Part shown: piece after piece, positions 12,166 through 33,980 of the stretch
Layout: every line of letters starts with the position of its first letter
How positions within the stretch are numbered: position 1 is the stretch's first letter
Source of the DNA: a phage
Sequence record: PZ154895.1
DNA: 64,000 nucleotides
Direction: 5' to 3' (one strand)
Position numbers and translations under genes: made by a program
The notes under the pieces: generated by a model
The model's database searches: none
Told to the model about the DNA's origin: nothing
What the model saw: only the letters and a program-made list of their open reading frames with translations

Positions 12166-13368
12166 ATGAAAGTATGCATTTTTATGGCTCGAGGTCTTGA
12201 AGGTTGTGGCGTAACTAAATTTTCTCTTGAGCAACGTGATTGGTTTATTAAAAATGGTCATGAAGTAACTTTGGTTTATGCTAAAGATAAATCATTTACT
12301 CGTAATTGCGCACATGATTATAAGTCATTTTCAATTCCGGTTTTATTGGCAAAAGAATACGATAAAACACTTAAGTTGGTAAATGATTGTGATATTCTAA
12401 TTATCAATTCAGTTCCTGCTACTTCAGTAGAAGAAGACACTATTAATAACTATAAAAAAATTATTGATAACATTAAACCTTCAGTTCGTGTTGTAGTTTA
12501 TCAGCATGACCATTCTTCTCTTTCTTTGCGCCGAAATTTGGGATTAGAAGAAACTGTTCGTCGAGCTGATGTTATTTTTAGTCATTCTGATAATGGTGAT
12601 TTTAATAAAGTTCTGATGAAAGAATGGTATCCGGAAACTGTTTCTCTGTTTGATGATATTGAAGAAGCACCGACCGTATATAACTTTCAGCCTCCTATGG
12701 ATATTGCGAAGGTTCGATCAACTTACTGGAAAGATGTTTCTGAAATTAACATGAATATCAACCGTTGGATTGGTCGTACTACTACATGGAAAGGCTTTTA
12801 TCAGATGTTTGATTTTCACGAAAAACATCTTAAACCTGCAGGACTAAGTACTATTATGGAAGGTCTGGAACGTTCTCCAGCGTTCATTCCTATTAAAGAA
12901 AAAGGAATTCCATACGAGTATTATCGTCTTCATCAAGTAGACCAAATTAAAATTGCTCCTAATTTGCCAACGCAAATTCTCGACCGTTATGTAAATAGCG
13001 AAATGCTTGAACGCATGAGTAAATCCGGATTTGGTTATCAGCTGAGTAAATTAGATAAAAAATATCTACAACGTTCTTTAGAATATACTCATCTCGAGCT
13101 TGGTGCATGCGGAACAATTCCAGTATTTTGGAAATCTACTGGCGAAAATTTAAAATTCCGTGTTGATAATACTCCGTTAATTTCTCATGATAGCGGTATC
13201 GTTTGGTTTGATGAAAATGACATGGAATCAACATTTGAGCGTATTAAAGAACTGTCATCTGACCGAGCTCTTTATGACCGTGAACGCGAAAAAGCTTATG
13301 AATTTTTGTATCAGCATCAAGATTCAAGCTTCTGCTTTAAAGAACAGTTTGACATTATTACAAAATAA
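12166..13368 (+). CDS. a-gt: DNA alpha-glucosyltransferase
   Basis: 400 aa; near-identical to T4 AGT as recalled; GAGGA SD; MotA-box promoter upstream; terminator downstream. Confidence 0.93.
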   Translation: MKVCIFMARGLEGCGVTKFSLEQRDWFIKNGHEVTLVYAKDKSFTRNCAHDYKSFSIPVLLAKEYDKTLKLVNDCDILIINSVPATSVEEDTINNYKKIIDNIKPSVRVVVYQHDHSSLSLRRNLGLEETVRRADVIFSHSDNGDFNKVLMKEWYPETVSLFDDIEEAPTVYNFQPPMDIAKVRSTYWKDVSEINMNINRWIGRTTTWKGFYQMFDFHEKHLKPAGLSTIMEGLERSPAFIPIKEKGIPYEYYRLHQVDQIKIAPNLPTQILDRYVNSEMLERMSKSGFGYQLSKLDKKYLQRSLEYTHLELGACGTIPVFWKSTGENLKFRVDNTPLISHDSGIVWFDENDMESTFERIKELSSDRALYDREREKAYEFLYQHQDSSFCFKEQFDIITK

Positions 13369-13407: not shown

Positions 13408-13548
13408 ATGATATTTCTTGGATATGTGATACTTTTTCTAGCGTTTTATTTGTTCACCAGAGCATGTTGGATTGGGTTCTTTAGTACTCCAGATGGATTT
13501 ATTTCAATAATTTTATTTTGCATTTCAATGACGGTTCTTGATATATGA
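13408..13548 (+). CDS. small hydrophobic peptide (46 aa)
   Basis: ATG after GGAG; stop overlaps start of next gene (ATGA). Confidence 0.35.
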   Translation: MIFLGYVILFLAFYLFTRACWIGFFSTPDGFISIILFCISMTVLDI

Positions 13549-14168
13549 AAAAATATATAACTTATTTAACAATATATAGTGGAGATAAACTTCCTCCTTT
13601 TTATATTGGATCTACATCTTTAGACAGGCATTTAGCCGGATATCATGGATCAGTTTTATCTAAAAAGTATAAGAAAATTTATAATGAAGAACTTTCAAAT
13701 AACCCACATTTATTTGATTCATGCATTTTAGATGAATTTGATACACGCGAAGAAGCTATTAAATGCGAGCTATATTATCAACGTTTGCATGATGCGGTTA
13801 AAAATCCATTATTCTTTAATATGTCATATGCTGCTCCAAAAGGTTCATTTGGAAGAGATATTAAAGGACAAAATCATCCATTATATGGTTCTCATAATTG
13901 TAAAGGAAACATACATTCACATGACCCATTAACAGGAAAATCTGCCTTTTTACCGTATATTCCAGAAGGTTATGTAAAAGGAAGGTCAAATAAATTTAAA
14001 GCTTCATCACATAATAAAGGTAAAAAATGGTATAATAACGGAGTTAAGCAAATGTTATGTCATGAACCTCCTGGTCCTGAATGGACAAAAGGAAAAATTA
14101 AAGAACTAGTTTCAAAAGCAGCTAAATTAGGATGGAAAAGACACCATGAAAATACTAAACTTGGGTGA
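13545..14168 (+). CDS. GIY-YIG family homing endonuclease-like protein (seg-like)
   Basis: N-terminal YLTIY...(10 aa)...FYIGST with downstream R and E (EEAIKCELYY); basic C-terminal half; 3' end overlaps gene 47 by 23 nt. Confidence 0.6.
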   Translation: MKKYITYLTIYSGDKLPPFYIGSTSLDRHLAGYHGSVLSKKYKKIYNEELSNNPHLFDSCILDEFDTREEAIKCELYYQRLHDAVKNPLFFNMSYAAPKGSFGRDIKGQNHPLYGSHNCKGNIHSHDPLTGKSAFLPYIPEGYVKGRSNKFKASSHNKGKKWYNNGVKQMLCHEPPGPEWTKGKIKELVSKAAKLGWKRHHENTKLG

Positions 14169-15425: not shown

Positions 15426-15612
15426 CATTAACGATGAATTCATAGCAAATATTGATTACACCGAAGAAGATTCTAGATATGTTGGAATAATTTATATCAC
15501 ATCAAAAGCAGCACAAGGTGTTGTTTGCATGGCTGAATTTGATGAATACTTTTTAGATTATGATGATATGATAGAATGGTCTAAAAGATACATTAAAAGG
15601 AATCTTTTGTGA
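15397..15612 (+). CDS. hypothetical protein; start uncertain
   Basis: ORF track 15349..15612; in-frame ATG 15397 or GTG 15406. Confidence 0.35.
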   Translation: MHTVKFSTFDINDEFIANIDYTEEDSRYVGIIYITSKAAQGVVCMAEFDEYFLDYDDMIEWSKRYIKRNLL

Positions 15613-17297
15613 AGAATTTTAAACTAAACCGAGTTAGGTATCAAAATATAATGTCAGTAGGTGGAAATCCTATTGACATTCAACTAGATAAGGTTCAAAA
15701 AACTCTTATTACTGGGCGAAATGGTGGTGGTAAGTCTACTATGTTAGAAGCCATCACATTTGGGCTTTTTGGCAAGCCATTTCGTGATGTAAAGAAAGGT
15801 CAATTAATAAACAGCACAAATAAGAAAGAACTTTTAGTTGAACTGTGGATGGAATATGATGAGAAAAAGTACTATATCAAAAGAGGACAAAAACCAAACG
15901 TTTTCGAAATCACCGTTAACGGTACACGTCTTAATGAATCTGCCAGCAGTAAAGATTTCCAAGCAGAATTTGAACAGCTTATCGGAATGTCATATGCCAG
16001 TTTCAAGCAGATTGTTGTCCTTGGTACAGCAGGGTATACCCCTTTCATGGGTTTGTCGACCCCTGCGCGAAGAAAGCTTGTGGAAGACCTGCTCGAGGTA
16101 GGAACATTAGCTGAAATGGATAAGCTTAATAAAGCACTAATACGTGAATTAAATTCACAAAACCAAGTGCTTGATGTTAAAAAAGATAGTATTATCCAAC
16201 AAATTAAAATATATAATGATAACGTTGAACGCCAGAAAAAATTAACTGGTGATAACCTTACTCGTCTGCAGAACATGTATGATGATTTGGCAAAAGAAGC
16301 TAGAACGTTAAAATCGGAAATAGAAGAAGCTAATGAAAGATTAGTTAATATTGTTTTGGATGAAGACCCGACTGATGCATTTAATAAAATCGGTCAAGAA
16401 GCATTTTTAATTAAATCAAAAATTGACTCGTATAATAAAGTCATTAATATGTATCACGAAGGTGGATTATGTCCAACCTGTTTGTCACAATTAAGTTCCG
16501 GTGATAAAGTTGTTTCTAAAATTAAAGATAAAGTTTCTGAATGCACGCATTCATTTGAACAGCTTTCAACACATCGTGATAATTTAAAAGTTCTTGTTGA
16601 TGAATACCGAGATAATATTAAAACCCAGCAGACGTTGGCAAATGATATTCGCAATAAAAAGCAATCCTTAATCACGACGGTAGATAAAGCTAAAAAAGTT
16701 AAAGCGGCTATAGAAAAAGCATCATCTGAGTTTATTGACCATGCTGATGAAATAGCACTGCTTCAAGAAGAACTTGATAAAATTGTTAAGACAAAAACTA
16801 ATTTAGTAATGGAAAAATACCACAGAGGAATTTTGACTGATATGCTCAAAGATTCTGGTATTAAAGGTGCTATTATTAAAAAGTACATTCCATTATTTAA
16901 TAAGCAGATTAACCATTATCTTAAAATAATGGAAGCGGATTATGTGTTTACATTAGATGAAGAATTTAATGAAACAATTAAATCCCGTGGTCGTGAAGAT
17001 TTTAGTTATGCTTCATTTAGTCAAGGTGAAAAAGCACGAATTGATATTGCTCTTTTATTTACTTGGCGTGATATTGCTGAAAAAGTTTCAGGTGTTAAAA
17101 TAAGCTGTTTATTTCTTGATGAAGTATATGACGGTGCATTTGATGCTGAAGGTATTAAAAATGTAGCTAAAATTTTAGATGGTTTGAAGGATACCAACTT
17201 CTTCATAATTTCGCATAAAGACCATGACCCACAAGAATATGGTCAGCATATTCAGATGGAAAAAGTTGGTAGATTTAGTTTAGCTAAGATTAGCTAG
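15609..17297 (+). CDS. 46: recombination endonuclease subunit gp46 (Rad50/SbcC-like ATPase)
   Basis: 562 aa; Walker A GRNGGGKST; CPTC zinc hook; matches T4 gp46; GTG start. Confidence 0.93.
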   Translation: MKNFKLNRVRYQNIMSVGGNPIDIQLDKVQKTLITGRNGGGKSTMLEAITFGLFGKPFRDVKKGQLINSTNKKELLVELWMEYDEKKYYIKRGQKPNVFEITVNGTRLNESASSKDFQAEFEQLIGMSYASFKQIVVLGTAGYTPFMGLSTPARRKLVEDLLEVGTLAEMDKLNKALIRELNSQNQVLDVKKDSIIQQIKIYNDNVERQKKLTGDNLTRLQNMYDDLAKEARTLKSEIEEANERLVNIVLDEDPTDAFNKIGQEAFLIKSKIDSYNKVINMYHEGGLCPTCLSQLSSGDKVVSKIKDKVSECTHSFEQLSTHRDNLKVLVDEYRDNIKTQQTLANDIRNKKQSLITTVDKAKKVKAAIEKASSEFIDHADEIALLQEELDKIVKTKTNLVMEKYHRGILTDMLKDSGIKGAIIKKYIPLFNKQINHYLKIMEADYVFTLDEEFNETIKSRGREDFSYASFSQGEKARIDIALLFTWRDIAEKVSGVKISCLFLDEVYDGAFDAEGIKNVAKILDGLKDTNFFIISHKDHDPQEYGQHIQMEKVGRFSLAKIS

Positions 17298-18006
17298 GTT
17301 TATATTTACAGTTATCATTATGCCATCTTGATAAATTTCCGAAAGTGGTAACTTTACCACAATGGACGCAAGTACCAGTCTTTTCAGTTTTCTTGCGTCC
17401 ATTTGGATTTTTCTTGCAGAAATTTCTATGCGCTGCGATAACGCATTTCTTGCCTATCATTCCACAGAATTCGCAGGATGTTTCTTCAAGAACGATTGCT
17501 TTAAGCCCGTTTGAGATATTATTTCTGTGTTCTTTAGACATTGGTGGTCTAACTTTAGGATTAGGGTGATTTGGACAGTTATCAAAATGCCAACGATTCA
17601 TATTCCCGCTTAATCCAGACTTACCGCAATGAGGACAAGTTAGTCTTGCTTTATTAGCTACTGCATCAGACATTTTCTTTCGTGTCTCCTGGGAGAATTC
17701 TTTGTTCTTTTCTATTTCCCAGAGTTTACGACGAATCCAACCGAAAGTTTTATTGTTGCGTTTAGCGTATTTCGTGGAAACTGTCATCATGTTAGCAGCA
17801 TAGACTAATTTTGGTTCAGAAGGATAAATTTTTACTAAAAGTTGATGAGCTACATAGTGCTCTTCTGGCGTTAAATCTACTAAGTTTGAAGCATCATCAC
17901 TACCGTTTAAACAGCGTGGTATAATGTGATGAGATTCAGTATAGCAATCAAGTTTTCGAGATTTAGCATTAGAGATTAACTTTTCATAAATTAGTTTATA
18001 ATTCAT
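17290..18006 (-). CDS. HNH homing endonuclease with three C-terminal zinc-finger-like repeats
   Basis: HNH core ESHHIIPR...SNLVDLTPEEHYVAH; three CxxC...W(H)xDNC repeats; AAGGA SD; only minus-strand gene inside the plus-strand replication cluster; 3' end overlaps gene 46 by 8 nt. Confidence 0.75.
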   Translation of the reverse strand: MNYKLIYEKLISNAKSRKLDCYTESHHIIPRCLNGSDDASNLVDLTPEEHYVAHQLLVKIYPSEPKLVYAANMMTVSTKYAKRNNKTFGWIRRKLWEIEKNKEFSQETRKKMSDAVANKARLTCPHCGKSGLSGNMNRWHFDNCPNHPNPKVRPPMSKEHRNNISNGLKAIVLEETSCEFCGMIGKKCVIAAHRNFCKKNPNGRKKTEKTGTCVHCGKVTTFGNLSRWHNDNCKYKPS

Positions 18007-21637: not shown

Positions 21638-24334
21638 ATGAAAGAATTTTATATCTCTATCGAAACAGTCGGAAATAATATTGTTGAGCGTTATATTGAT
21701 GAAAACGGAAAGGAACGTACTCGTGAAGTAGAATATCTTCCGACTATGTTTAGGCATTGTAAGGAAGAGTCAAAGTACAAAGACATTTACGGTAAAAATT
21801 GCGCTCCTCAAAAATTTCCATCAATGAAAGATGCACGAGACTGGATGAAGCGAATGGAAGACATCGGTCTCGAAGCTCTTGGTATGAACGATTTTAAACT
21901 CGCTTATATCAGTGATACATATGGTTCAGAAATTGTTTATGACCGAAAATTTGTTCGTGTAGCTAACTGTGACATTGAGGTTACTGGCGATAAATTTCCT
22001 GACCCAATGAAAGCAGAATATGAAATTGATGCTATCACTCATTATGATTCAATTGACGACCGTTTTTACGTCTTTGATTTGTTGAATTCAATGTACGGTT
22101 CAGTATCAAAATGGGATGCAAAGTTAGCTGCTAAACTTGACTGTGAAGGTGGTGATGAAGTTCCTCAAGAAATTCTTGACCGAGTAATTTATATGCCATT
22201 TGATAATGAGCGTGATATGCTCATGGAATATATTAATCTCTGGGAACAGAAACGACCTGCTATTTTTACTGGTTGGAATATTGAGGGATTTGACGTTCCG
22301 TATATCATGAATCGCGTTAAAATGGTTCTTGGTGAACGTAGTATGAAACGCTTCTCTCCAATCGGTCGAGTAAAATCTAAACTAATTCAAAATATGTACG
22401 GTAGCAAAGAAATTTATTCTATTGATGGCGTATCTATTCTTGATTATTTAGATTTGTACAAGAAATTCGCATTTACTAATTTGCCATCATTCTCTTTGGA
22501 ATCAGTTGCTCAACATGAAACCAAAAAAGGTAAATTGCCGTACGATGGTCCTATTAATAAACTTCGTGAGACTAATCATCAACGATACATTAGTTATAAC
22601 ATTATTGACGTAGAATCAGTTCAAGCAATTGATAAAATTCGTGGGTTTATCGATCTAGTTTTAAGTATGTCTTATTATGCTAAAATGCCTTTTTCTGGTG
22701 TAATGAGTCCTATTAAAACTTGGGATGCTATTATTTTTAACTCACTGAAAAGTGAACATAAGGTTATTCCTCAACAAGGTTCGCACGTTAAGCAGAGTTT
22801 TCCAGGCGCATTTGTGTTTGAACCTAAACCGATTGCCCGTCGATACATTATGAGTTTTGACTTGACATCTCTGTATCCTAGCATTATTCGTCAGGTTAAC
22901 ATTAGTCCTGAGACTATTCGTGGACAGTTTAAAGTTCATCCAATTCATGAATATATCGCAGGAACAGCTCCTAAGCCAAGTGATGAATATTCTTGTTCTC
23001 CGAATGGATGGATGTATGATAAGCACCAAGAAGGTATCATTCCAAAGGAAATCGCTAAAGTATTTTTCCAGCGTAAAGATTGGAAAAAGAAAATGTTCGC
23101 CGAAGAAATGAATGCCGAAGCTATTAAAAAGATTATTATGAAAGGTGCAGGGTCTTGCTCAACTAAGCCAGAAGTTGAACGATATGTTAAGTTCAGTGAT
23201 GATTTCTTAAATGAATTATCGAATTACACCGAATCTGTTCTTAATAGTCTGATCGAAGAATGTGAAAAAGCAGCTACACTTGCTAACACAAATCAGCTGA
23301 ACCGTAAAATTCTTATCAACAGTCTTTATGGTGCTCTTGGTAATATTCATTTCCGTTACTATGATTTGCGAAATGCTACTGCTATCACAATTTTTGGTCA
23401 AGTTGGTATTCAGTGGATTGCTCGTAAAATTAATGAATATCTGAATAAAGTGTGTGGAACTGATGGTGAAGATTTCATCGCAGCAGGTGATACTGATTCG
23501 GTATATGTTTGTGTAGATAAAGTAATTGAAAAAGTAGGTCTTGACCGCTTTAAAGAACAAAATGATTTAGTTGAATTCATGAATCAGTTTGGTAAGAAAA
23601 AGATGGAACCTATGATTGATGTTGCATATCGTGAGTTATGTGATTATATGAATAACCGCGAGCATCTGATGCATATGGACCGTGAAGCTATTTCTTGCCC
23701 TCCACTCGGTTCAAAGGGTGTTGGTGGATTTTGGAAAGCGAAAAAACGTTATGCTCTGAACGTTTATGATATGGAAGATAAGCGATTTGCTGAACCACAT
23801 CTAAAAATCATGGGTATGGAAACTCAACAGAGTTCAACACCAAAAGCAGTGCAAGAAGCTCTCGAAGAAAGTATTCGTCGTATTCTTCAGGAAGGTGAAG
23901 AGTCTGTCCAAGAATACTATAAGAACTTTGAGAAAGAATACCGTCAACTTGACTATAAAGTTATTGCTGAAGTAAAAACCGCGAACGATATAGCAAAATA
24001 TGACGATAAGGGTTGGCCAGGATTTAAATGTCCGTTCCATATTCGTGGTGTGCTAACTTATCGTCGAGCTGTTAGCGGTTTAGGTGTAGCTCCAATTTTG
24101 GATGGAAATAAGGTAATGGTTCTTCCGTTACGTGAGGGAAATCCATTTGGTGACAAGTGTATTGCTTGGCCGTCGGGCACAGAACTTCCAAAAGAAATTC
24201 GTTCTGATGTACTGTCTTGGATTGACTACTCAACTTTGTTCCAAAAATCGTTTGTTAAACCGCTTGCGGGCATGTGTGAATCGGCAGGTATGGACTATGA
24301 GGAAAAAGCTTCGTTAGACTTCCTGTTTGGCTGA
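21638..24334 (+). CDS. 43: DNA polymerase gp43 (family B, 3'-5' exonuclease)
   Basis: 898 aa; exo and pol motifs (DIE, YGG, DTDS); translational operator hairpin upstream. Confidence 0.97.
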   Translation: MKEFYISIETVGNNIVERYIDENGKERTREVEYLPTMFRHCKEESKYKDIYGKNCAPQKFPSMKDARDWMKRMEDIGLEALGMNDFKLAYISDTYGSEIVYDRKFVRVANCDIEVTGDKFPDPMKAEYEIDAITHYDSIDDRFYVFDLLNSMYGSVSKWDAKLAAKLDCEGGDEVPQEILDRVIYMPFDNERDMLMEYINLWEQKRPAIFTGWNIEGFDVPYIMNRVKMVLGERSMKRFSPIGRVKSKLIQNMYGSKEIYSIDGVSILDYLDLYKKFAFTNLPSFSLESVAQHETKKGKLPYDGPINKLRETNHQRYISYNIIDVESVQAIDKIRGFIDLVLSMSYYAKMPFSGVMSPIKTWDAIIFNSLKSEHKVIPQQGSHVKQSFPGAFVFEPKPIARRYIMSFDLTSLYPSIIRQVNISPETIRGQFKVHPIHEYIAGTAPKPSDEYSCSPNGWMYDKHQEGIIPKEIAKVFFQRKDWKKKMFAEEMNAEAIKKIIMKGAGSCSTKPEVERYVKFSDDFLNELSNYTESVLNSLIEECEKAATLANTNQLNRKILINSLYGALGNIHFRYYDLRNATAITIFGQVGIQWIARKINEYLNKVCGTDGEDFIAAGDTDSVYVCVDKVIEKVGLDRFKEQNDLVEFMNQFGKKKMEPMIDVAYRELCDYMNNREHLMHMDREAISCPPLGSKGVGGFWKAKKRYALNVYDMEDKRFAEPHLKIMGMETQQSSTPKAVQEALEESIRRILQEGEESVQEYYKNFEKEYRQLDYKVIAEVKTANDIAKYDDKGWPGFKCPFHIRGVLTYRRAVSGLGVAPILDGNKVMVLPLREGNPFGDKCIAWPSGTELPKEIRSDVLSWIDYSTLFQKSFVKPLAGMCESAGMDYEEKASLDFLFG

Positions 24335-24347
24335 TAGAATAAATCTA

Positions 24348-24369
24348 GGGACCTCCGGGTCCCTTTTTC
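24348..24369 (+). terminator. rho-independent terminator after gene 43
   Basis: GGGACC-TCCG-GGTCCC + TTTTT. Confidence 0.7.
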
Positions 24370-24451
24370 ATACAAGTAATATAAATCTATACTTAGGAAA
24401 AATAGATGATTCTAGGTCCTGTAAATTCATTAAAAATTTTTTCACAAAACT

Positions 24452-24481
24452 GTTTACATCCCCGTTCTTCCATGGTACTAT
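24452..24481 (+). promoter_or_regulatory. early promoter
   Basis: GTTTAC, 18-nt spacer, TGgTACTAT. Confidence 0.5.
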
Positions 24482-24515
24482 ACAACTATCAACTGATATG
24501 GATTTGGAGAATAAA

Positions 24516-24752
24516 ATGAAAATTGTTTATGGTTGTTTAGCAGTGTGTTTAGTTGCATTAGCAACTGTTCCATTTATTGATATTGAAAATGACACTCAGA
24601 ATGTGATTGAATCTAATACTATTATTCACATGAATGGTAAAGTATCAACAAAAATTGATGATAATCTTCATATGAATACTAATGGAACGTTGGGTGTTCA
24701 ATTAGGTAATACCTGTGTAAGCACTACTGGAGTAATTACTACTTGTATTTGA
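24516..24752 (+). CDS. small secreted/membrane protein (78 aa)
   Basis: In-frame ATG inside ORF 24327..24752, preceded by early promoter and GGAG; N-terminal hydrophobic segment. Confidence 0.45.
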   Translation: MKIVYGCLAVCLVALATVPFIDIENDTQNVIESNTIIHMNGKVSTKIDDNLHMNTNGTLGVQLGNTCVSTTGVITTCI

Positions 24753-24762
24753 GGAAATTATT

Positions 24763-25143
24763 ATGAAAATCGCTATTTTGGTTATTGCATTAGGTCTTAC
24801 TGGCTGTGTAGCTCAAGGACCAGTAGTAAATCAGTCTGATGTAGGAAAAATTGTAAACTGTTCAAGCAAATTTTATAATCCTAACGTCAAGTGTTATAAA
24901 GAAGCTCCAAAACAGACAGTAGAACAAATGCAGGCGAATTTTGACGAAGCTATTCGTCCAGATGAATCTGCTCAAGCATATCGTAATTCAGATGTGATTA
25001 CACGTGAAGAAAAAATTGAAAACTACTGTGCTGAACTTTGGGCAAATTGGGCTAATAATTACCAATGGCGTACCGGTAAAAATGCTCCGATGGAGTATGT
25101 AGTAAATTCTTATAATTCATGCGTAAAAAATTTGACTAAGTGA
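24763..25143 (+). CDS. putative lipoprotein (126 aa)
   Basis: Signal peptide with lipobox LTGC; GAGGA SD. Confidence 0.55.
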   Translation: MKIAILVIALGLTGCVAQGPVVNQSDVGKIVNCSSKFYNPNVKCYKEAPKQTVEQMQANFDEAIRPDESAQAYRNSDVITREEKIENYCAELWANWANNYQWRTGKNAPMEYVVNSYNSCVKNLTK

Positions 25144-25150
25144 GGAAAAC

Positions 25151-25402
25151 ATGGAAACTTTAGTAGCAGGTTCAATTTTTATGGTTTTAGTTTCAGGCGT
25201 GTTGGCTATTATTATATACATGCTTCCATGGTTCATCGCCTTGATGCGTGGGTCAAAATCGACAGTAGGAATCTTTTTCACATCTTTACTGTTTAACTGG
25301 TCAATCATTGGTTGGTTTATTACATTTATTTGGTCAATTGCAGGTGAAACTAAAAAATCTGTACAGCAAAATCAAGTAATTATCATCAGAGAGAAGGAAT
25401 GA
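25151..25402 (+). CDS. imm: immunity (superinfection exclusion) membrane protein Imm
   Basis: 83 aa, two hydrophobic helices; position between 43 and 42 as in T4. Confidence 0.85.
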   Translation: METLVAGSIFMVLVSGVLAIIIYMLPWFIALMRGSKSTVGIFFTSLLFNWSIIGWFITFIWSIAGETKKSVQQNQVIIIREKE

Positions 25403-25548
25403 AAAGCAAAATTTTAGCAGTATTGCTTTTAATCTTGATGATTATAATAAGTATATACTATAGCGTAACAGTTCCTTGTATGATTCCAACGCTTATTATA
25501 GGGTGGAGTTTATTACTGTTACAAGTTAAATATGAATGCATCAATTGA
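25399..25548 (+). CDS. small membrane protein (49 aa), below ORF-track cut-off
   Basis: ATGA overlap with imm stop; entirely hydrophobic. Confidence 0.4.
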   Translation: MKSKILAVLLLILMIIISIYYSVTVPCMIPTLIIGWSLLLLQVKYECIN

Positions 25549-25555
25549 GGTTTAA

Positions 25556-26296
25556 ATGATTAACGATTATATGACAGTTGAAGAAATCCGTCTTGATTTG
25601 GGTCTTGCATTAAAGGAAAAAGATTTCGTAATTGATAAAACCGGTGTTAAAACTATTGAAATTATTGGTGCATCATTTGTAGCAGATGAACCTTTTATTT
25701 TTGGCGCTCTTAATGATGAATACATTCAACGTGAACTTGAATGGTATAAGTCTCAAAGTCTGTTTGTTAAAGATATTCCAGGTGAAACGCCGAAGATTTG
25801 GCAGCAGGTAGCATCTTCTAAAGGCGAAATTAACTCGAATTATGGTTGGGCCATCTGGTCAGAAGATAACTATGCCCAGTATGATATGTGTTTAGCTGAA
25901 CTTGGTCAAAATCCTGATTCTCGACGCGGTATCATGATTTATACTCGTCCATCCATGCAGTTTGACTACAATAAAGATGGTATGTCAGATTTCATGTGTA
26001 CGAATACAGTACAGTACCTGATTCGTGATAAGAAAGTCAATGCAGTAGTAAGCATGCGTTCAAATGACGTAGTCTTCGGATTCCGTAATGATTATGCGTG
26101 GCAAAAATACGTACTAGATAAATTAGTATCTGATTTGAATGCAGGTGATTCAACTCGTCAGTATAAAGCAGGTTCCATTATATGGAATGTCGGGAGCCTT
26201 CATGTGTATTCCCGTCATTTTTATTTGGTTGACCATTGGTGGAAAACTGGCGAAACTCATATTGCGAAAAAAGATTATAACGGTGAGTGGAAATGA
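25556..26296 (+). CDS. 42: dCMP hydroxymethylase gp42
   Basis: 246 aa; near-identical to T4 gp42. Confidence 0.95.
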   Translation: MINDYMTVEEIRLDLGLALKEKDFVIDKTGVKTIEIIGASFVADEPFIFGALNDEYIQRELEWYKSQSLFVKDIPGETPKIWQQVASSKGEINSNYGWAIWSEDNYAQYDMCLAELGQNPDSRRGIMIYTRPSMQFDYNKDGMSDFMCTNTVQYLIRDKKVNAVVSMRSNDVVFGFRNDYAWQKYVLDKLVSDLNAGDSTRQYKAGSIIWNVGSLHVYSRHFYLVDHWWKTGETHIAKKDYNGEWK

Positions 26297-27135
26297 TTCA
26301 ATTCGTAATTCCAAGCTATCAACGCGGAGGGGCAGTTTCTGCCCTTGATATGTTTCCGACTGATTATGAACCTCATATTGTAGTACGTGAACACGAAGAA
26401 AAAGCTTATTATGACGCTTACGGGTCTAGAGCTAAAATTATAACTATTCCTGATGATGTTAATGGAATTGCTGGTACTCGTAAAGCAATTACTGATATGT
26501 ATGCAGGTCAACGAATCTGGATGATTGATGATGATACTACTATTCGTATGAGTTCAATGCGAAAGAAAGATGATCGTCGCTGTGTAGATAAAATTAATCA
26601 ATTAACTCGTGAACAGTTCTATGAATTGATTCAATACGTGGAAGATGCCATGGATTGCGGGTATTATCACGGCCATGCTCGTCTACCTATTTTTAAAATT
26701 ACTTCATCTTGGGGTAATTATCGTGAAAATTCATACGGATTCACGAATACCTGGTATGATTTAGGAAAACTTACAACAGAACAAATTGGGTATGGAAAAA
26801 TTGATTTATGCGAAGATATGTATGCATTTCTCAATTTAATTAATCAAGGTTATCCGCATTTGGCCTTGTTCAAATATCTAGTTGTATCTGGAAAAGCGCA
26901 AGCTCCTGGCGGATGTAGTTCAATTCGTAGTAATTCAAAACATAATAGAGCTCTTGAGCAAATCAATAGAGAGTTTCCAGAGCAAGCTCGTTGGAAAACT
27001 TCTAATATTGAAAAACGAAAATCGTTGGGTGAAGAAGACGAGCCATTAAAGGTTCTTCGCATGTGTGTTTCGCGCAAAGAAAAGTCAGAAGCATTTCATA
27101 AGTTTAATGCTATTCATCCAATAGCAGTTGATTAA
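26293..27135 (+). CDS. ba-gt: putative DNA glycosyltransferase with DXD motif; candidate beta-alpha-glucosyltransferase
   Basis: Occupies the b-gt slot between 42 and uvsX but does not resemble T4 BGT; motif WMIDDDTTI; ATGA overlap with gene 42. Confidence 0.6.
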   Translation: MIQFVIPSYQRGGAVSALDMFPTDYEPHIVVREHEEKAYYDAYGSRAKIITIPDDVNGIAGTRKAITDMYAGQRIWMIDDDTTIRMSSMRKKDDRRCVDKINQLTREQFYELIQYVEDAMDCGYYHGHARLPIFKITSSWGNYRENSYGFTNTWYDLGKLTTEQIGYGKIDLCEDMYAFLNLINQGYPHLALFKYLVVSGKAQAPGGCSSIRSNSKHNRALEQINREFPEQARWKTSNIEKRKSLGEEDEPLKVLRMCVSRKEKSEAFHKFNAIHPIAVD

Positions 27136-27212
27136 TGCCTAAATTTATTGTGTTATAATTACCCTATCTTTAACCAGTGAGGAAAATATAATGATGCCTA
27201 TGGAAAAAATGA

Positions 27213-28394
27213 ATGTCTATTGCAGATTTAAAATCCCGTTTGATTAAAGCTTCCACTTCTAAAATGACTGCTGAACTGACTACATCTAAATTCTTTAATG
27301 AAAAGGATGTAATCCGTACAAAAATCCCAATGCTTAATATCGCTATTTCCGGTGCGATTGATGGTGGAATGCAGTCTGGTTTAACCATTTTTGCAGGTCC
27401 TTCTAAACACTTTAAATCAAATATGTCTTTGACTATGGTTGCGGCGTATTTGAACAAATATCCTGATGCGGTTTGTTTATTCTATGATAGCGAATTTGGT
27501 ATTACTCCAGCTTATTTGCGATCCATGGGAGTTGACCCGGAACGAGTAATTCATACACCAATTCAGTCAGTTGAACAGCTGAAAATTGATATGGTGAATC
27601 AGCTTGAAGCTATTGAGCGCGGTGAAAAGGTTATTGTATTCATCGACTCAATCGGTAATATGGCTTCTAAGAAAGAAACGGAAGATGCCTTGAATGAAAA
27701 ATCTGTGGCAGATATGACTCGTGCTAAATCACTGAAGTCATTATTCCGTATTGTTACTCCTTATTTTAGTATCAAAAACATTCCATGTGTTGCGGTTAAC
27801 CATACAATTGAAACAATTGAAATGTTTAGTAAAACCGTGATGACAGGTGGTACAGGCGTAATGTATTCGGCTGATACTGTATTCATTATCGGTAAGCGTC
27901 AGATTAAAGATGGTTCTGATCTTCAGGGGTATCAATTTGTTCTAAATGTAGAAAAATCTCGTACCGTCAAAGAAAAAAGTAAATTCTTTATTGATGTTAA
28001 ATTTGACGGTGGTATCGATCCTTATTCTGGATTGTTAGATATGGCTCTTGAATTAGGATTTGTAGTAAAACCTAAAAATGGCTGGTATGCTCGTGAATTT
28101 CTTGATGAAGAAACCGGCGAGATGATTCGCGAAGAAAAATCTTGGCGCGCAAAAGATACCAACTGTACTACATTCTGGGGTCCTTTATTTAAGCATCAAC
28201 CATTCCGAGATGCTATTAAACGCGCTTATCAGTTGGGTGCTATTGATAGTAATGAAATTGTTGAAGCTGAAGTTGATGAATTAATTAACTCAAAGGTTGA
28301 AAAATTTAAATCTCCAGAAAGTAAAAGTAAATCAGCAGCTGATTTAGAAACTGACCTAGATCAGTTAAGTGATATGGAAGAATTTAATGAATAA
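27213..28394 (+). CDS. uvsX: RecA-like recombinase UvsX
   Basis: 393 aa; near-identical to T4 UvsX; Walker A GPSKHFKS. Confidence 0.95.
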   Translation: MSIADLKSRLIKASTSKMTAELTTSKFFNEKDVIRTKIPMLNIAISGAIDGGMQSGLTIFAGPSKHFKSNMSLTMVAAYLNKYPDAVCLFYDSEFGITPAYLRSMGVDPERVIHTPIQSVEQLKIDMVNQLEAIERGEKVIVFIDSIGNMASKKETEDALNEKSVADMTRAKSLKSLFRIVTPYFSIKNIPCVAVNHTIETIEMFSKTVMTGGTGVMYSADTVFIIGKRQIKDGSDLQGYQFVLNVEKSRTVKEKSKFFIDVKFDGGIDPYSGLLDMALELGFVVKPKNGWYAREFLDEETGEMIREEKSWRAKDTNCTTFWGPLFKHQPFRDAIKRAYQLGAIDSNEIVEAEVDELINSKVEKFKSPESKSKSAADLETDLDQLSDMEEFNE

Positions 28395-32164: not shown

Positions 32165-33193
32165 ATGTCATCAATACCTTGGATTGATAATGAGTTTGCA
32201 TATCGTGCATTAGCTCATTTACCTAAATTCACACAAGTAAATAATAGTTCAACTTTTAAATTACGGTTTAGATGCCCTGTTTGTGGAGATTCAAAAACCG
32301 ACCAAAATAAAGCCCGTGGATGGTATTATGGCGATAATAATGAAGGAAATATTCATTGTTATAACTGCAACTATCATGCACCAATCGGAATATATTTAAA
32401 GGAGTTTGAACCCGATTTATATCGTGAGTATATCTTTGAAATAAGAAAAGAAAAAGGTAAAAGTCGTCCAGTAGAAAAACCTAAAGAACTTCCTAAACAA
32501 CCTGAGAAGAAAATAATTAAATCTCTTCCGTCATGCATTAGATTAGATAAATTGGCGGAAGACCATCCAATTATAAAATATGTAAAAGCTCGCTGTATTC
32601 CAAAGGATAAATGGAAATATCTTTGGTTTACAACCGAATGGCCTAAATTAGTTAATAGCATAGCACCAGGAACATACAAAAAGGAAATACCTGAGCCTCG
32701 TCTTGTTATTCCAATTTATAATGCTAATGGAAAAGCTGAGTCTTTTCAAGGACGTGCATTAAAGAAAGATGCTCCTCAAAAATATATCACCATCAAAGCT
32801 TATCCTGAAGCAACAAAAATCTATGGCGTTGAACGAGTTAAAGATGGTGATGTATATGTTCTAGAAGGACCTATAGATTCACTTTTTATTGAAAATGGTA
32901 TAGCTATTACGGGCGGTCAATTAGACCTAGAAATTGTTCCATTTAAAGATAGACGTGTGTGGGTTTTGGATAATGAACCTCGTCATCCTGACACTATTAA
33001 ACGAATGACTAAATTAGTTGATGCAGGAGAAAGGGTTATGTTTTGGGACAAATCTCCCTGGAAATCAAAAGATGTTAATGATATGATTAGAAAGGAAGGT
33101 GCAACCCCTGAACAAATTATGGAATATATGAAAAATAATATTGCCCAGGGGTTGATGGCTAAAATGCGGCTATCTAAATATGCTAAGATTTAA
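32165..33193 (+). CDS. 61: DNA primase gp61
   Basis: 342 aa; near-identical to T4 gp61; zinc ribbon CPVCGD...CYNC; TOPRIM region. Confidence 0.95.
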   Translation: MSSIPWIDNEFAYRALAHLPKFTQVNNSSTFKLRFRCPVCGDSKTDQNKARGWYYGDNNEGNIHCYNCNYHAPIGIYLKEFEPDLYREYIFEIRKEKGKSRPVEKPKELPKQPEKKIIKSLPSCIRLDKLAEDHPIIKYVKARCIPKDKWKYLWFTTEWPKLVNSIAPGTYKKEIPEPRLVIPIYNANGKAESFQGRALKKDAPQKYITIKAYPEATKIYGVERVKDGDVYVLEGPIDSLFIENGIAITGGQLDLEIVPFKDRRVWVLDNEPRHPDTIKRMTKLVDAGERVMFWDKSPWKSKDVNDMIRKEGATPEQIMEYMKNNIAQGLMAKMRLSKYAKI

Positions 33194-33390
33194 ATTAACC
33201 CAACTAAAGCAAATGCTAAATCTACGAATGTATCAAGAGTAATTACTGGAATATTAACACCATGAGCAATAGCAATTGGTGATAAAACAAAATTCCAAAG
33301 TAAAATTCCTACCATAGCAGAAATAGTAAAAGCTATACGTTTTTTATTACCTTTTATGGCATTAACAAGTGCCATTAATTTTTGTACCAT
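33190..33390 (-). CDS. small membrane protein on opposite strand (66 aa)
   Basis: ORF track; strong AGGAGG SD on minus strand; two hydrophobic segments; stop overlaps gene 61 stop. Confidence 0.45.
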   Translation of the reverse strand: MVQKLMALVNAIKGNKKRIAFTISAMVGILLWNFVLSPIAIAHGVNIPVITLDTFVDLAFALVGLI

Positions 33391-33461
33391 ATGTCCTCCT
33401 TATTGCTTTATATATTTATTGTATAATTAATCTACTAACCCATGAATTGAAAGGAAAAATA

Positions 33462-33980
33462 ATGGCATACTTTAATGAATGTTCACAACTGATCGAAGGC
33501 GCTGATAAAGCTCAAAATGAATACTGGGATATTCTCGGTGATGAAAAAGACCCACTACAGGTTATGCTTGATATGCAGAAATCTTTGCAGGTTCGTTTAG
33601 CTAAAGATAAACCTGAATATAACCGTCATCCTGATGATTTGGCTACTGCAGGCGAAGTTGTTGATTGGCTGCGTAATCAAAAAGATTATATTGACGATGA
33701 ATTCCGTGAACTTCTGACTTCTCTTGGCGGCATGAGCAATGGTGAAAAAGATGCATCTGCTGTATGGAAGCCTTGGAAAGCTCAACATGGTGAACGCCGT
33801 GAAACTCTAATTACTGATTTGTCTCCGCAAGATCAGTTGGAAATTAAATTCGAAATGATTGATATTCTTCATTTCGTTCTGAACATGTTCCAAGGTCTTG
33901 GTCTTACGGCTGAAGAAATCTTTAAACTTTATTATCTGAAAAATGCTGAAAACTTCGCTCGTCAAGACCGAGGTTATTGA
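33462..33980 (+). CDS. 56: dCTPase/dUTPase gp56
   Basis: ORF track 33369..33980; internal ATG at 33462 gives MAYFNECSQLIEG... as in T4 gp56. Confidence 0.9.
   Translation: MAYFNECSQLIEGADKAQNEYWDILGDEKDPLQVMLDMQKSLQVRLAKDKPEYNRHPDDLATAGEVVDWLRNQKDYIDDEFRELLTSLGGMSNGEKDASAVWKPWKAQHGERRETLITDLSPQDQLEIKFEMIDILHFVLNMFQGLGLTAEEIFKLYYLKNAENFARQDRGY

Follow-up and report, generated by a model that had tools for sequence, protein, structure and literature searches.

The ba-gt genes of phages T2 and T6 were reportedly first cloned by Winkler and Rueger (in Nucleic Acids Res, 1993). The DNA of T2 and T6 carries gentiobiosyl-hmC (~5% and ~72%, respectively), which is formed via homologous ba-gt enzymes (PMC6024577), and the DNA of a T6 ba-gt deletion mutant carries alpha-glucosyl-hmC only (PMC11078745). 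The enzymes of this family, termed TAGT, have no sequence similarity to alpha-GT or beta-GT, and an AlphaFold3 model of T6 TAGT adopts the GT-A fold and clusters as a sister to GT2 (PMC13216743). [quoted passage not shown] Ten Durham Tequatrovirus phages with alpha-GT and TAGT were analyzed by HPLC/MS, which detected hmdC, alpha-glucosyl-hmdC, and alpha-gentiobiosyl-hmdC but no species carrying a beta-glucosyl group; in these phages TAGT lies "at the position syntenic with" T4 beta-GT (PMC13390438).

We analyzed a stretch of phage DNA of 64,000 nucleotides (sequence record PZ154895.1, hereafter the window), in which one ORF is, with high confidence, the Tequatrovirus ba-gt gene, encoding a single-domain metal-dependent GT-A enzyme predicted to add a second glucose and to leave the phage DNA with gentiobiosyl-hmC. 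The orthology, synteny, fold, motifs, and partner genes were computed here, and the chemistry and the T6 knockout phenotype are taken from the literature.

Identification and genomic context of the ba-gt gene

The whole window is Tequatrovirus DNA; across 20 kb, its identity to Shigella phage SH-2, ime09, PP01, and others is 96-98%. The ba-gt ORF spans positions 26293-27135 on the plus strand and encodes 280 aa from an ATG codon, with an alternative GTG start at 26287; its assignment as the CDS of a beta-glucosyl-HMC-alpha-glucosyltransferase (ba-gt, ggt, or TAGT) draws on the ORF itself, the PHROG 842 and PF20691 matches, the identity to T2/T6, and the GT-A model. It is flanked upstream by gene 42 (25556-26296, plus strand), the dCMP hydroxymethylase gene for hmC supply, which was recognized by a Pfam match to the thymidylate synthase family and by DNA homology to T4, and downstream by uvsX (27213-28394, plus strand), an ORF that shows 90% DNA identity to T4 from position 27225 onward. 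The first-pass annotation of this DNA had described a 280-aa protein between gene 42 and uvsX with the motif WMIDDDTTI, and the ORF, its flanks, and residues 76-84 all agree with that description.

The ATG codon at 26293 and the TGA stop of gene 42 overlap as ATGA, and the T2 ba-gt gene is annotated with the same start. This overlap suggests that ba-gt is co-transcribed and translationally coupled with gene 42. Ten promoter-like sites were found in the region 25300-27400 against 9.8 expected, which leaves separate regulation unsupported, and one terminator-like hairpin was found there against 0.9 expected. An 8-bp GC-rich hairpin, AGGGGCAG-TTT-CTGCCCTT, is located at 26328-26346 on the plus strand, in codons 12-18 of ba-gt and ~35 nt past its start codon; it is terminator-like by the scan, in which the count is at chance level, and T2 and T6 share every base of it except the first.

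The 280-aa protein was compared by tblastn with 50,697 phage records, 690 of which gave a match, including 686 with at least 80% query coverage. At least 95% identity to the window protein was found in 472 records, and 203 records from Klebsiella, Enterobacter, Citrobacter, and Salmonella phages fell at 60-80% identity. When 1.84 billion representatives were searched exhaustively with HMMER, 327 relatives were retrieved at E <= 0.001. Over the 280 aa, the protein is 98.2% identical to that of T2 (PV648363) and 97.5% identical to that of T6 (MH550421), and the matched gene is annotated in the T2/T6 records as "ggt: beta-glucosyl-HMC-alpha-glucosyl-transferase"; the Durham phages QOTSP (98.6% protein identity) and Solly are also among the tblastn matches. 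The gene order 42, ba-gt, uvsX is common to T2, T6, Geo, QOTSP, and Solly. Among family profiles, residues 1-275 match phrog_842 ("beta-glucosyl-HMC-alpha-glucosyltransferase") at E=7e-88, and residues 5-207 match positions 4-205 of the 205-position PF20691 profile (TAGT, TET-associated glycosyltransferase) with 37 bits (cut-off 27.5), this being the sole Pfam family matched; the modest score reflects the divergence of the T-even branch, which has ~25-35% identity to most TAGT members. NCBIfam has no model for either the ba-gt or the a-gt protein. The candidate identification as the T2/T6 enzyme, which had been put forward from the letters alone and left to a sequence search, is borne out by these identities, the shared slot, and the PHROG match. 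As judged from the sequence comparisons, the ORF is the orthologue of T2/T6 ba-gt (also named ggt, g-gt, or TAGT). We also considered a recent foreign insertion of ba-gt, which was ruled out since its GC content (0.36-0.38) is the same as that of its neighbours and since a homologue is found in as many as 686 phage records at the above coverage.

Exchange of the T4 b-gt cassette

In T4, the slot between 42 and uvsX is occupied by b-gt and the homing endonuclease gene segA. The identity of the window to T4 DNA is 94.7% across positions 24763-26278, a region that reaches into gene 42; in the blastn alignment, homology stops at 26278, short of the last 18 nt of that gene, and restarts at 27225, which is 12 nt into uvsX. 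The segment that differs from T4 (26279-27224, plus strand) thus measures 946 nt here versus 1941 nt for b-gt and segA in T4.

The two segments, window 26279-27224 and T4 (NC_000866) 23556-25496, represent a clean cassette exchange. The segA gene of the T4 cassette encodes a GIY-YIG homing endonuclease, and the window cassette carries no seg gene. Two ORFs elsewhere in the window look like candidate free-standing homing endonucleases, as suggested by weak, below-cut-off profile matches: a 207-aa ORF at 13545-14168 (plus strand), located between a-gt and gene 47, with a GIY-YIG match of 19.9 bits, and a 238-aa ORF at 17290-18006 (minus strand) with an HNH match of 16.9 bits, located directly downstream of a gene 46-like ORF (15609-17297) and in the opposite orientation.

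The window protein and T4 BGT share no detectable similarity: the best BLASTP E-value is 3.3, hhalign of the family profile (46 sequences) with T4 BGT yields a probability of 0.07%, and PF09198, to which T4 BGT scores 325 bits, does not match the window protein. These results uphold the earlier impression that the protein bears no resemblance to T4 BGT. The first-pass description of an unrelated glycosyltransferase in the b-gt slot holds in this respect; however, its wording implies an unusual arrangement, and the arrangement is in fact the majority state.

Fold and conserved residues of the ba-gt protein

An AlphaFold2 model of the window protein, built from an alignment of 46 sequences collected in two homologue searches, has a mean pLDDT of 92.8 and a pTM of 0.90. 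When the model was compared with the PDB by Foldseek, the top matches were all GT-A enzymes (E ~2e-6, probability 1.00), namely the chondroitin polymerase K4CP, AvpGT, WrtF, RmlT, TarP, and TarS. The model contains a single alpha/beta/alpha nucleotide-diphospho-sugar transferase domain and lacks the two-domain architecture of GT-B enzymes. As modelled, the window protein is of the GT-A fold and not the GT-B fold; the GT-A fold, which had been suspected from the motif and assigned to a structure prediction, is what both the confident model and its top structural matches show. A search of PDB sequences with the window protein returned chance matches only (E >=0.76), so that no solved structure of the family was found in this way.

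Conservation was counted in 182 full-length family members obtained in the homologue searches, and also in the 46-sequence alignment. The motif W76-M-I-D79-D80-D81-T-T-I84 of the window protein contains the DXD-type metal and nucleotide-sugar motif (codons D79-D80-D81, 26527-26535, plus strand), which directly follows strand 74-78 and is conserved as D79 in 181, D80 in 182, and D81 in 173 of the 182 members. A GT-A style DXD motif had already been proposed for this site, and the invariance or near-invariance of the three aspartates and their position after a core beta-strand are as expected for one. The N-terminal motif IPSYxR, which follows strand beta-1, includes R11 (codon 26323-26325, plus strand) as part of a putative nucleotide-binding loop; the arginine is present in 178 of 178 non-gap sequences. 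D175 (codon 26815-26817, plus strand) belongs to a C-E-D sequence that opens helix 174-184 of the model and is an aspartate in all 182 members. Further conserved positions are R63 (173 of the 182), G206/G207 (175/176), and R212 (168), and the window protein has R11, R63, D79-81, D175, G206-G207, and R212 all intact. The arrangement of a DDD after a strand and a C-E-D at a helix start is one that we take to be the layout of the DXD and GT2 "xED" catalytic-base motifs of inverting enzymes. D175 is accordingly a putative catalytic base for an inverting reaction of the GT-A type, R11 is predicted to act in nucleotide binding, and DDD79-81 in the binding of metal and nucleotide sugar.

Proposed pathway of DNA glucosylation

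The partner gene a-gt (12166-13368, plus strand) encodes the 400-aa DNA alpha-glucosyltransferase that makes the alpha-glucosyl-hmC acceptor. The protein matches T4 DNA alpha-glucosyltransferase (PDB 1xv5) at E=5e-257 along residues 1-400 and Pfam PF11440 with 784 bits, and it is 91.3% identical to a-gt of phage Geo; the a-gt gene is intact, as previously noted.

In the proposed pathway, gp42 would make hydroxymethyl-dCMP, from which replication would then build hmC into DNA, and alpha-GT would place an alpha-linked glucose on this hmC. Ba-gt would subsequently transfer glucose from UDP-glucose to the 6-OH of the first glucose with inversion, and the resulting beta-1,6 bond would yield gentiobiosyl-hmC. 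From UDP-alpha-glucose, an inverting enzyme would form a beta linkage, in agreement with the beta-1,6 bond in gentiobiose. The window allele is presumably fully active, and the phage DNA should contain unmodified hmC, alpha-glucosyl-hmC, and gentiobiosyl-hmC, with no beta-glucosyl-hmC. The first-pass annotation had predicted such T2/T6-style decoration in place of the T4 alpha/beta pattern, and it is the one measured in the Durham phages that have this alpha-GT and TAGT gene set (PMC13390438), among them QOTSP.

Allele differences and expected gentiobiosyl level

The gentiobiosyl share observed in phages whose enzymes are ~97-98% identical ranges from ~5% in T2 to ~72% in T6 (PMC6024577, PMC13390438), and because of this range the gentiobiosyl-hmC fraction is only partly predictable from sequence, no residue having been validated as its determinant. 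The Durham phages form a 1:2:2 group of EL, BGP, and Geo (~40%) and a two-thirds group of Solly and QOTSP; the genes for dam and a restriction-enzyme-like protein mark the former group (PMC13390438). Compared with six relatives, the window protein has two changes that are absent from all of them, V12G and R92K, and shares I101 (V in the others) with Geo only. T2 differs from the six other compared sequences, including that of the window, at R11 and P251, both of which the window protein keeps. A tblastn search of the 64-kb window with the Geo dam and the adjacent restriction-enzyme-like gene gave no homologue anywhere in it. Because R11 and P251 are as in T6 and the Durham phages and because the dam and restriction-enzyme-like genes are absent, we lean toward a high gentiobiosyl fraction for the window phage.

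In Geo, dam and the restriction-enzyme-like gene are carried between genes 61 and 56; the corresponding interval in the window is 33194-33458, between gene 61 (32165-33193) and a gp56-like ORF (33459-33980), the latter being assigned by synteny and a weak Pfam dUTPase_2 match.

Several records of T2 and T6 carry ba-gt variants of their own. The T2 gene (PV648363) encodes R11H, with a CGT codon changed to CAT, at a position where 178 of 178 relatives have the invariant arginine, and it also encodes P251S; an 81-nt T2 segment with CAT is found exactly in eight records, all of them T2 or SV76, and its CGT version is found exactly in 55. It is plausible from these comparisons that R11H causes the low gentiobiosyl content of T2; we found no paper that states this link among those consulted for other points. 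In the T6 record MH550421, codon 10 of ba-gt is a TAG amber, a variant unique among 473 records, which is why the CDS is annotated from M20; a start at M20 would remove strand beta-1 and R11. In another T6 record (AP018814/NC_054907), a 3-nt deletion in ba-gt converts IDDD to IDD. These different lesions in two independent records may represent stock mutations or sequencing errors.

The spread of levels between T2 and T6, a difference known since about 1960, raises the question of whether the window gene, as a true ba-gt orthologue, could be a weak T2-like allele that leaves the DNA mostly alpha-monoglucosylated, with a few per cent gentiobiosyl-hmC. The T2 enzyme is 98.2% identical to the window enzyme, yet T2 DNA contains only ~5% gentiobiosyl-hmC (PMC6024577), and of the two private substitutions of the window protein, V12G and R92K, the former adjoins the invariant R11. 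We nevertheless consider a weak allele unlikely: R11 and P251, at which T2 differs, are both retained in the window protein, the R11H codon being found exactly only in the eight T2/SV76 records; all family-conserved residues are intact; and, having no dam and restriction-enzyme-like genes, the window resembles the two-thirds-gentiobiosyl group (PMC13390438). There is a slimmer chance that V12G and R92K shift the extent or the sequence context of the second glucosylation, in which case the phage could have a ratio of mono- to diglucosylated hmC unlike that of both T2 and T6 and a distinct sensitivity to defences of the glycosylase type, such as Brig1 and BapA.

Alternative products of the enzyme

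A fully active ba-gt that extends alpha-glucosyl-hmC was also weighed against readings with a different product. An enzyme that acted directly on hmC in DNA, as an analogue of T4 beta-GT, would form beta-monoglucosyl-hmC, and such a role could be imagined for a gene that occupies the T4 b-gt slot and encodes an inverting-type GT-A enzyme, which would make beta linkages, the more so as free acceptors exist (~25% of hmC is unmodified in T2/T6). However, that same ~25% stays naked in T2/T6 despite the presence of the gene, and no beta-glucosyl-hmC was detected in the Durham phages with the same gene set (PMC13390438). Moreover, T6 without the gene has only alpha-glucosyl-hmC, and the gentiobiosyl-hmC that dominates in wild-type T6 requires it (PMC11078745; bioRxiv 10.64898/2026.02.25.707755), which makes direct action on hmC very improbable. 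The least credible reading is that the window phage uses a different sugar or linkage to make a new disaccharide. In its favour, the TAGT family is diverse, its members being found alongside alpha-GT, alongside beta-GT, or by themselves (PMC13216743), and arabinose-based modifications are known from related Tevenvirinae phages (PMC6024577, PMC13390438). Against it, the window enzyme is 97-99% identical to those of phages with measured gentiobiosyl-hmC (PMC13390438), which makes another donor or linkage very improbable. Nothing in the data points to new chemistry.

Implications for phage defence

The first-pass annotation had held that this DNA decoration changes sensitivity to glucose-specific and type IV restriction systems. 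The claim stands as far as gentiobiosylation alters sensitivity to Brig1 and BapA; it does not extend to GmrSD-type enzymes, which still cut gentiobiosyl DNA. The DNA of T6 lacking ba-gt is degraded by the glycosylase Brig1, to which this phage is more susceptible (PMC11078745), and the glucose-removing BapA acts on DNA of T6 lacking g-gt but not on that of wild-type T6 (bioRxiv 10.64898/2026.02.25.707755). On the other side, both stereoisomers of glucosyl-hmC are targets of GmrSD, as is gentiobiosyl-hmC (PMC13216743), and the GmrSD-family enzyme BrxU cleaved every modification tested, gentiobiosyl DNA included (PMC13390438). The biological function of TAGT, that is, which defences it overcomes, has been called "yet-to-be defined" (PMC13216743); up to now, the second glucose has been documented to help against defences that act as glycosylases or remove glucose (Brig1, BapA). 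The window phage is thus predicted to be less vulnerable to BapA and Brig1-type glycosylases than a phage with mono-alpha-glucosylated DNA, to be still cut by GmrSD/BrxU-type enzymes, and to be protected from McrBC-type enzymes.

Comparison with known glycosyltransferases

Structurally, the window protein was compared with the inverting GT2-like enzymes of the GT-A fold WrtF (9omh), TarP (6h1j/6h4m), TarS (5tze), K4CP (2z86/2z87), and SpsA (1h7l), to which its sequence identity is only 8-16%. The acceptor of the window enzyme would be a sugar on duplex DNA, whereas these enzymes use lipid, teichoic acid, or glycan acceptors; unlike them, the window protein has no membrane or oligomerisation domain. 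With T4 b-gt (PF09198) it shares the genomic slot, the beta linkage, and, according to the literature, the UDP-glucose donor; however, T4 BGT has the GT-B fold in place of GT-A and glucosylates the hydroxymethyl of hmC, whereas the window enzyme is predicted to act on the glucose-6-OH of alpha-glucosyl-hmC.

Within the TAGT family (PF20691), the window protein keeps the family-invariant R11, R63, DDD, and D175, and it differs in the origin of its acceptor: hmC is made here as a nucleotide by gp42 and glucosylated by alpha-GT, and not via a TET/JBP dioxygenase. A genomic linkage to TET/JBP dioxygenases, from which the family takes its name, is not expected in T-even phages because their hmC comes from gp42. 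The T2/T6 ba-gt genes match that of the window in length, in the start overlapping the gene 42 stop, in the slot, and in having a-gt and 42 as partners; the window differs from them at residues 12 (G for V), 92 (K for R), and 101 (I for V), and it carries neither R11H and P251S of T2 nor the lesions of the two T6 records. Among Tequatrovirus phages, this one belongs to the common class with alpha-GT and TAGT and brings no new biology; the window gene is a typical member of a characterised family, and earlier publications already cover the gene and its fold class, the synteny with T4 b-gt, and the DNA chemistry.
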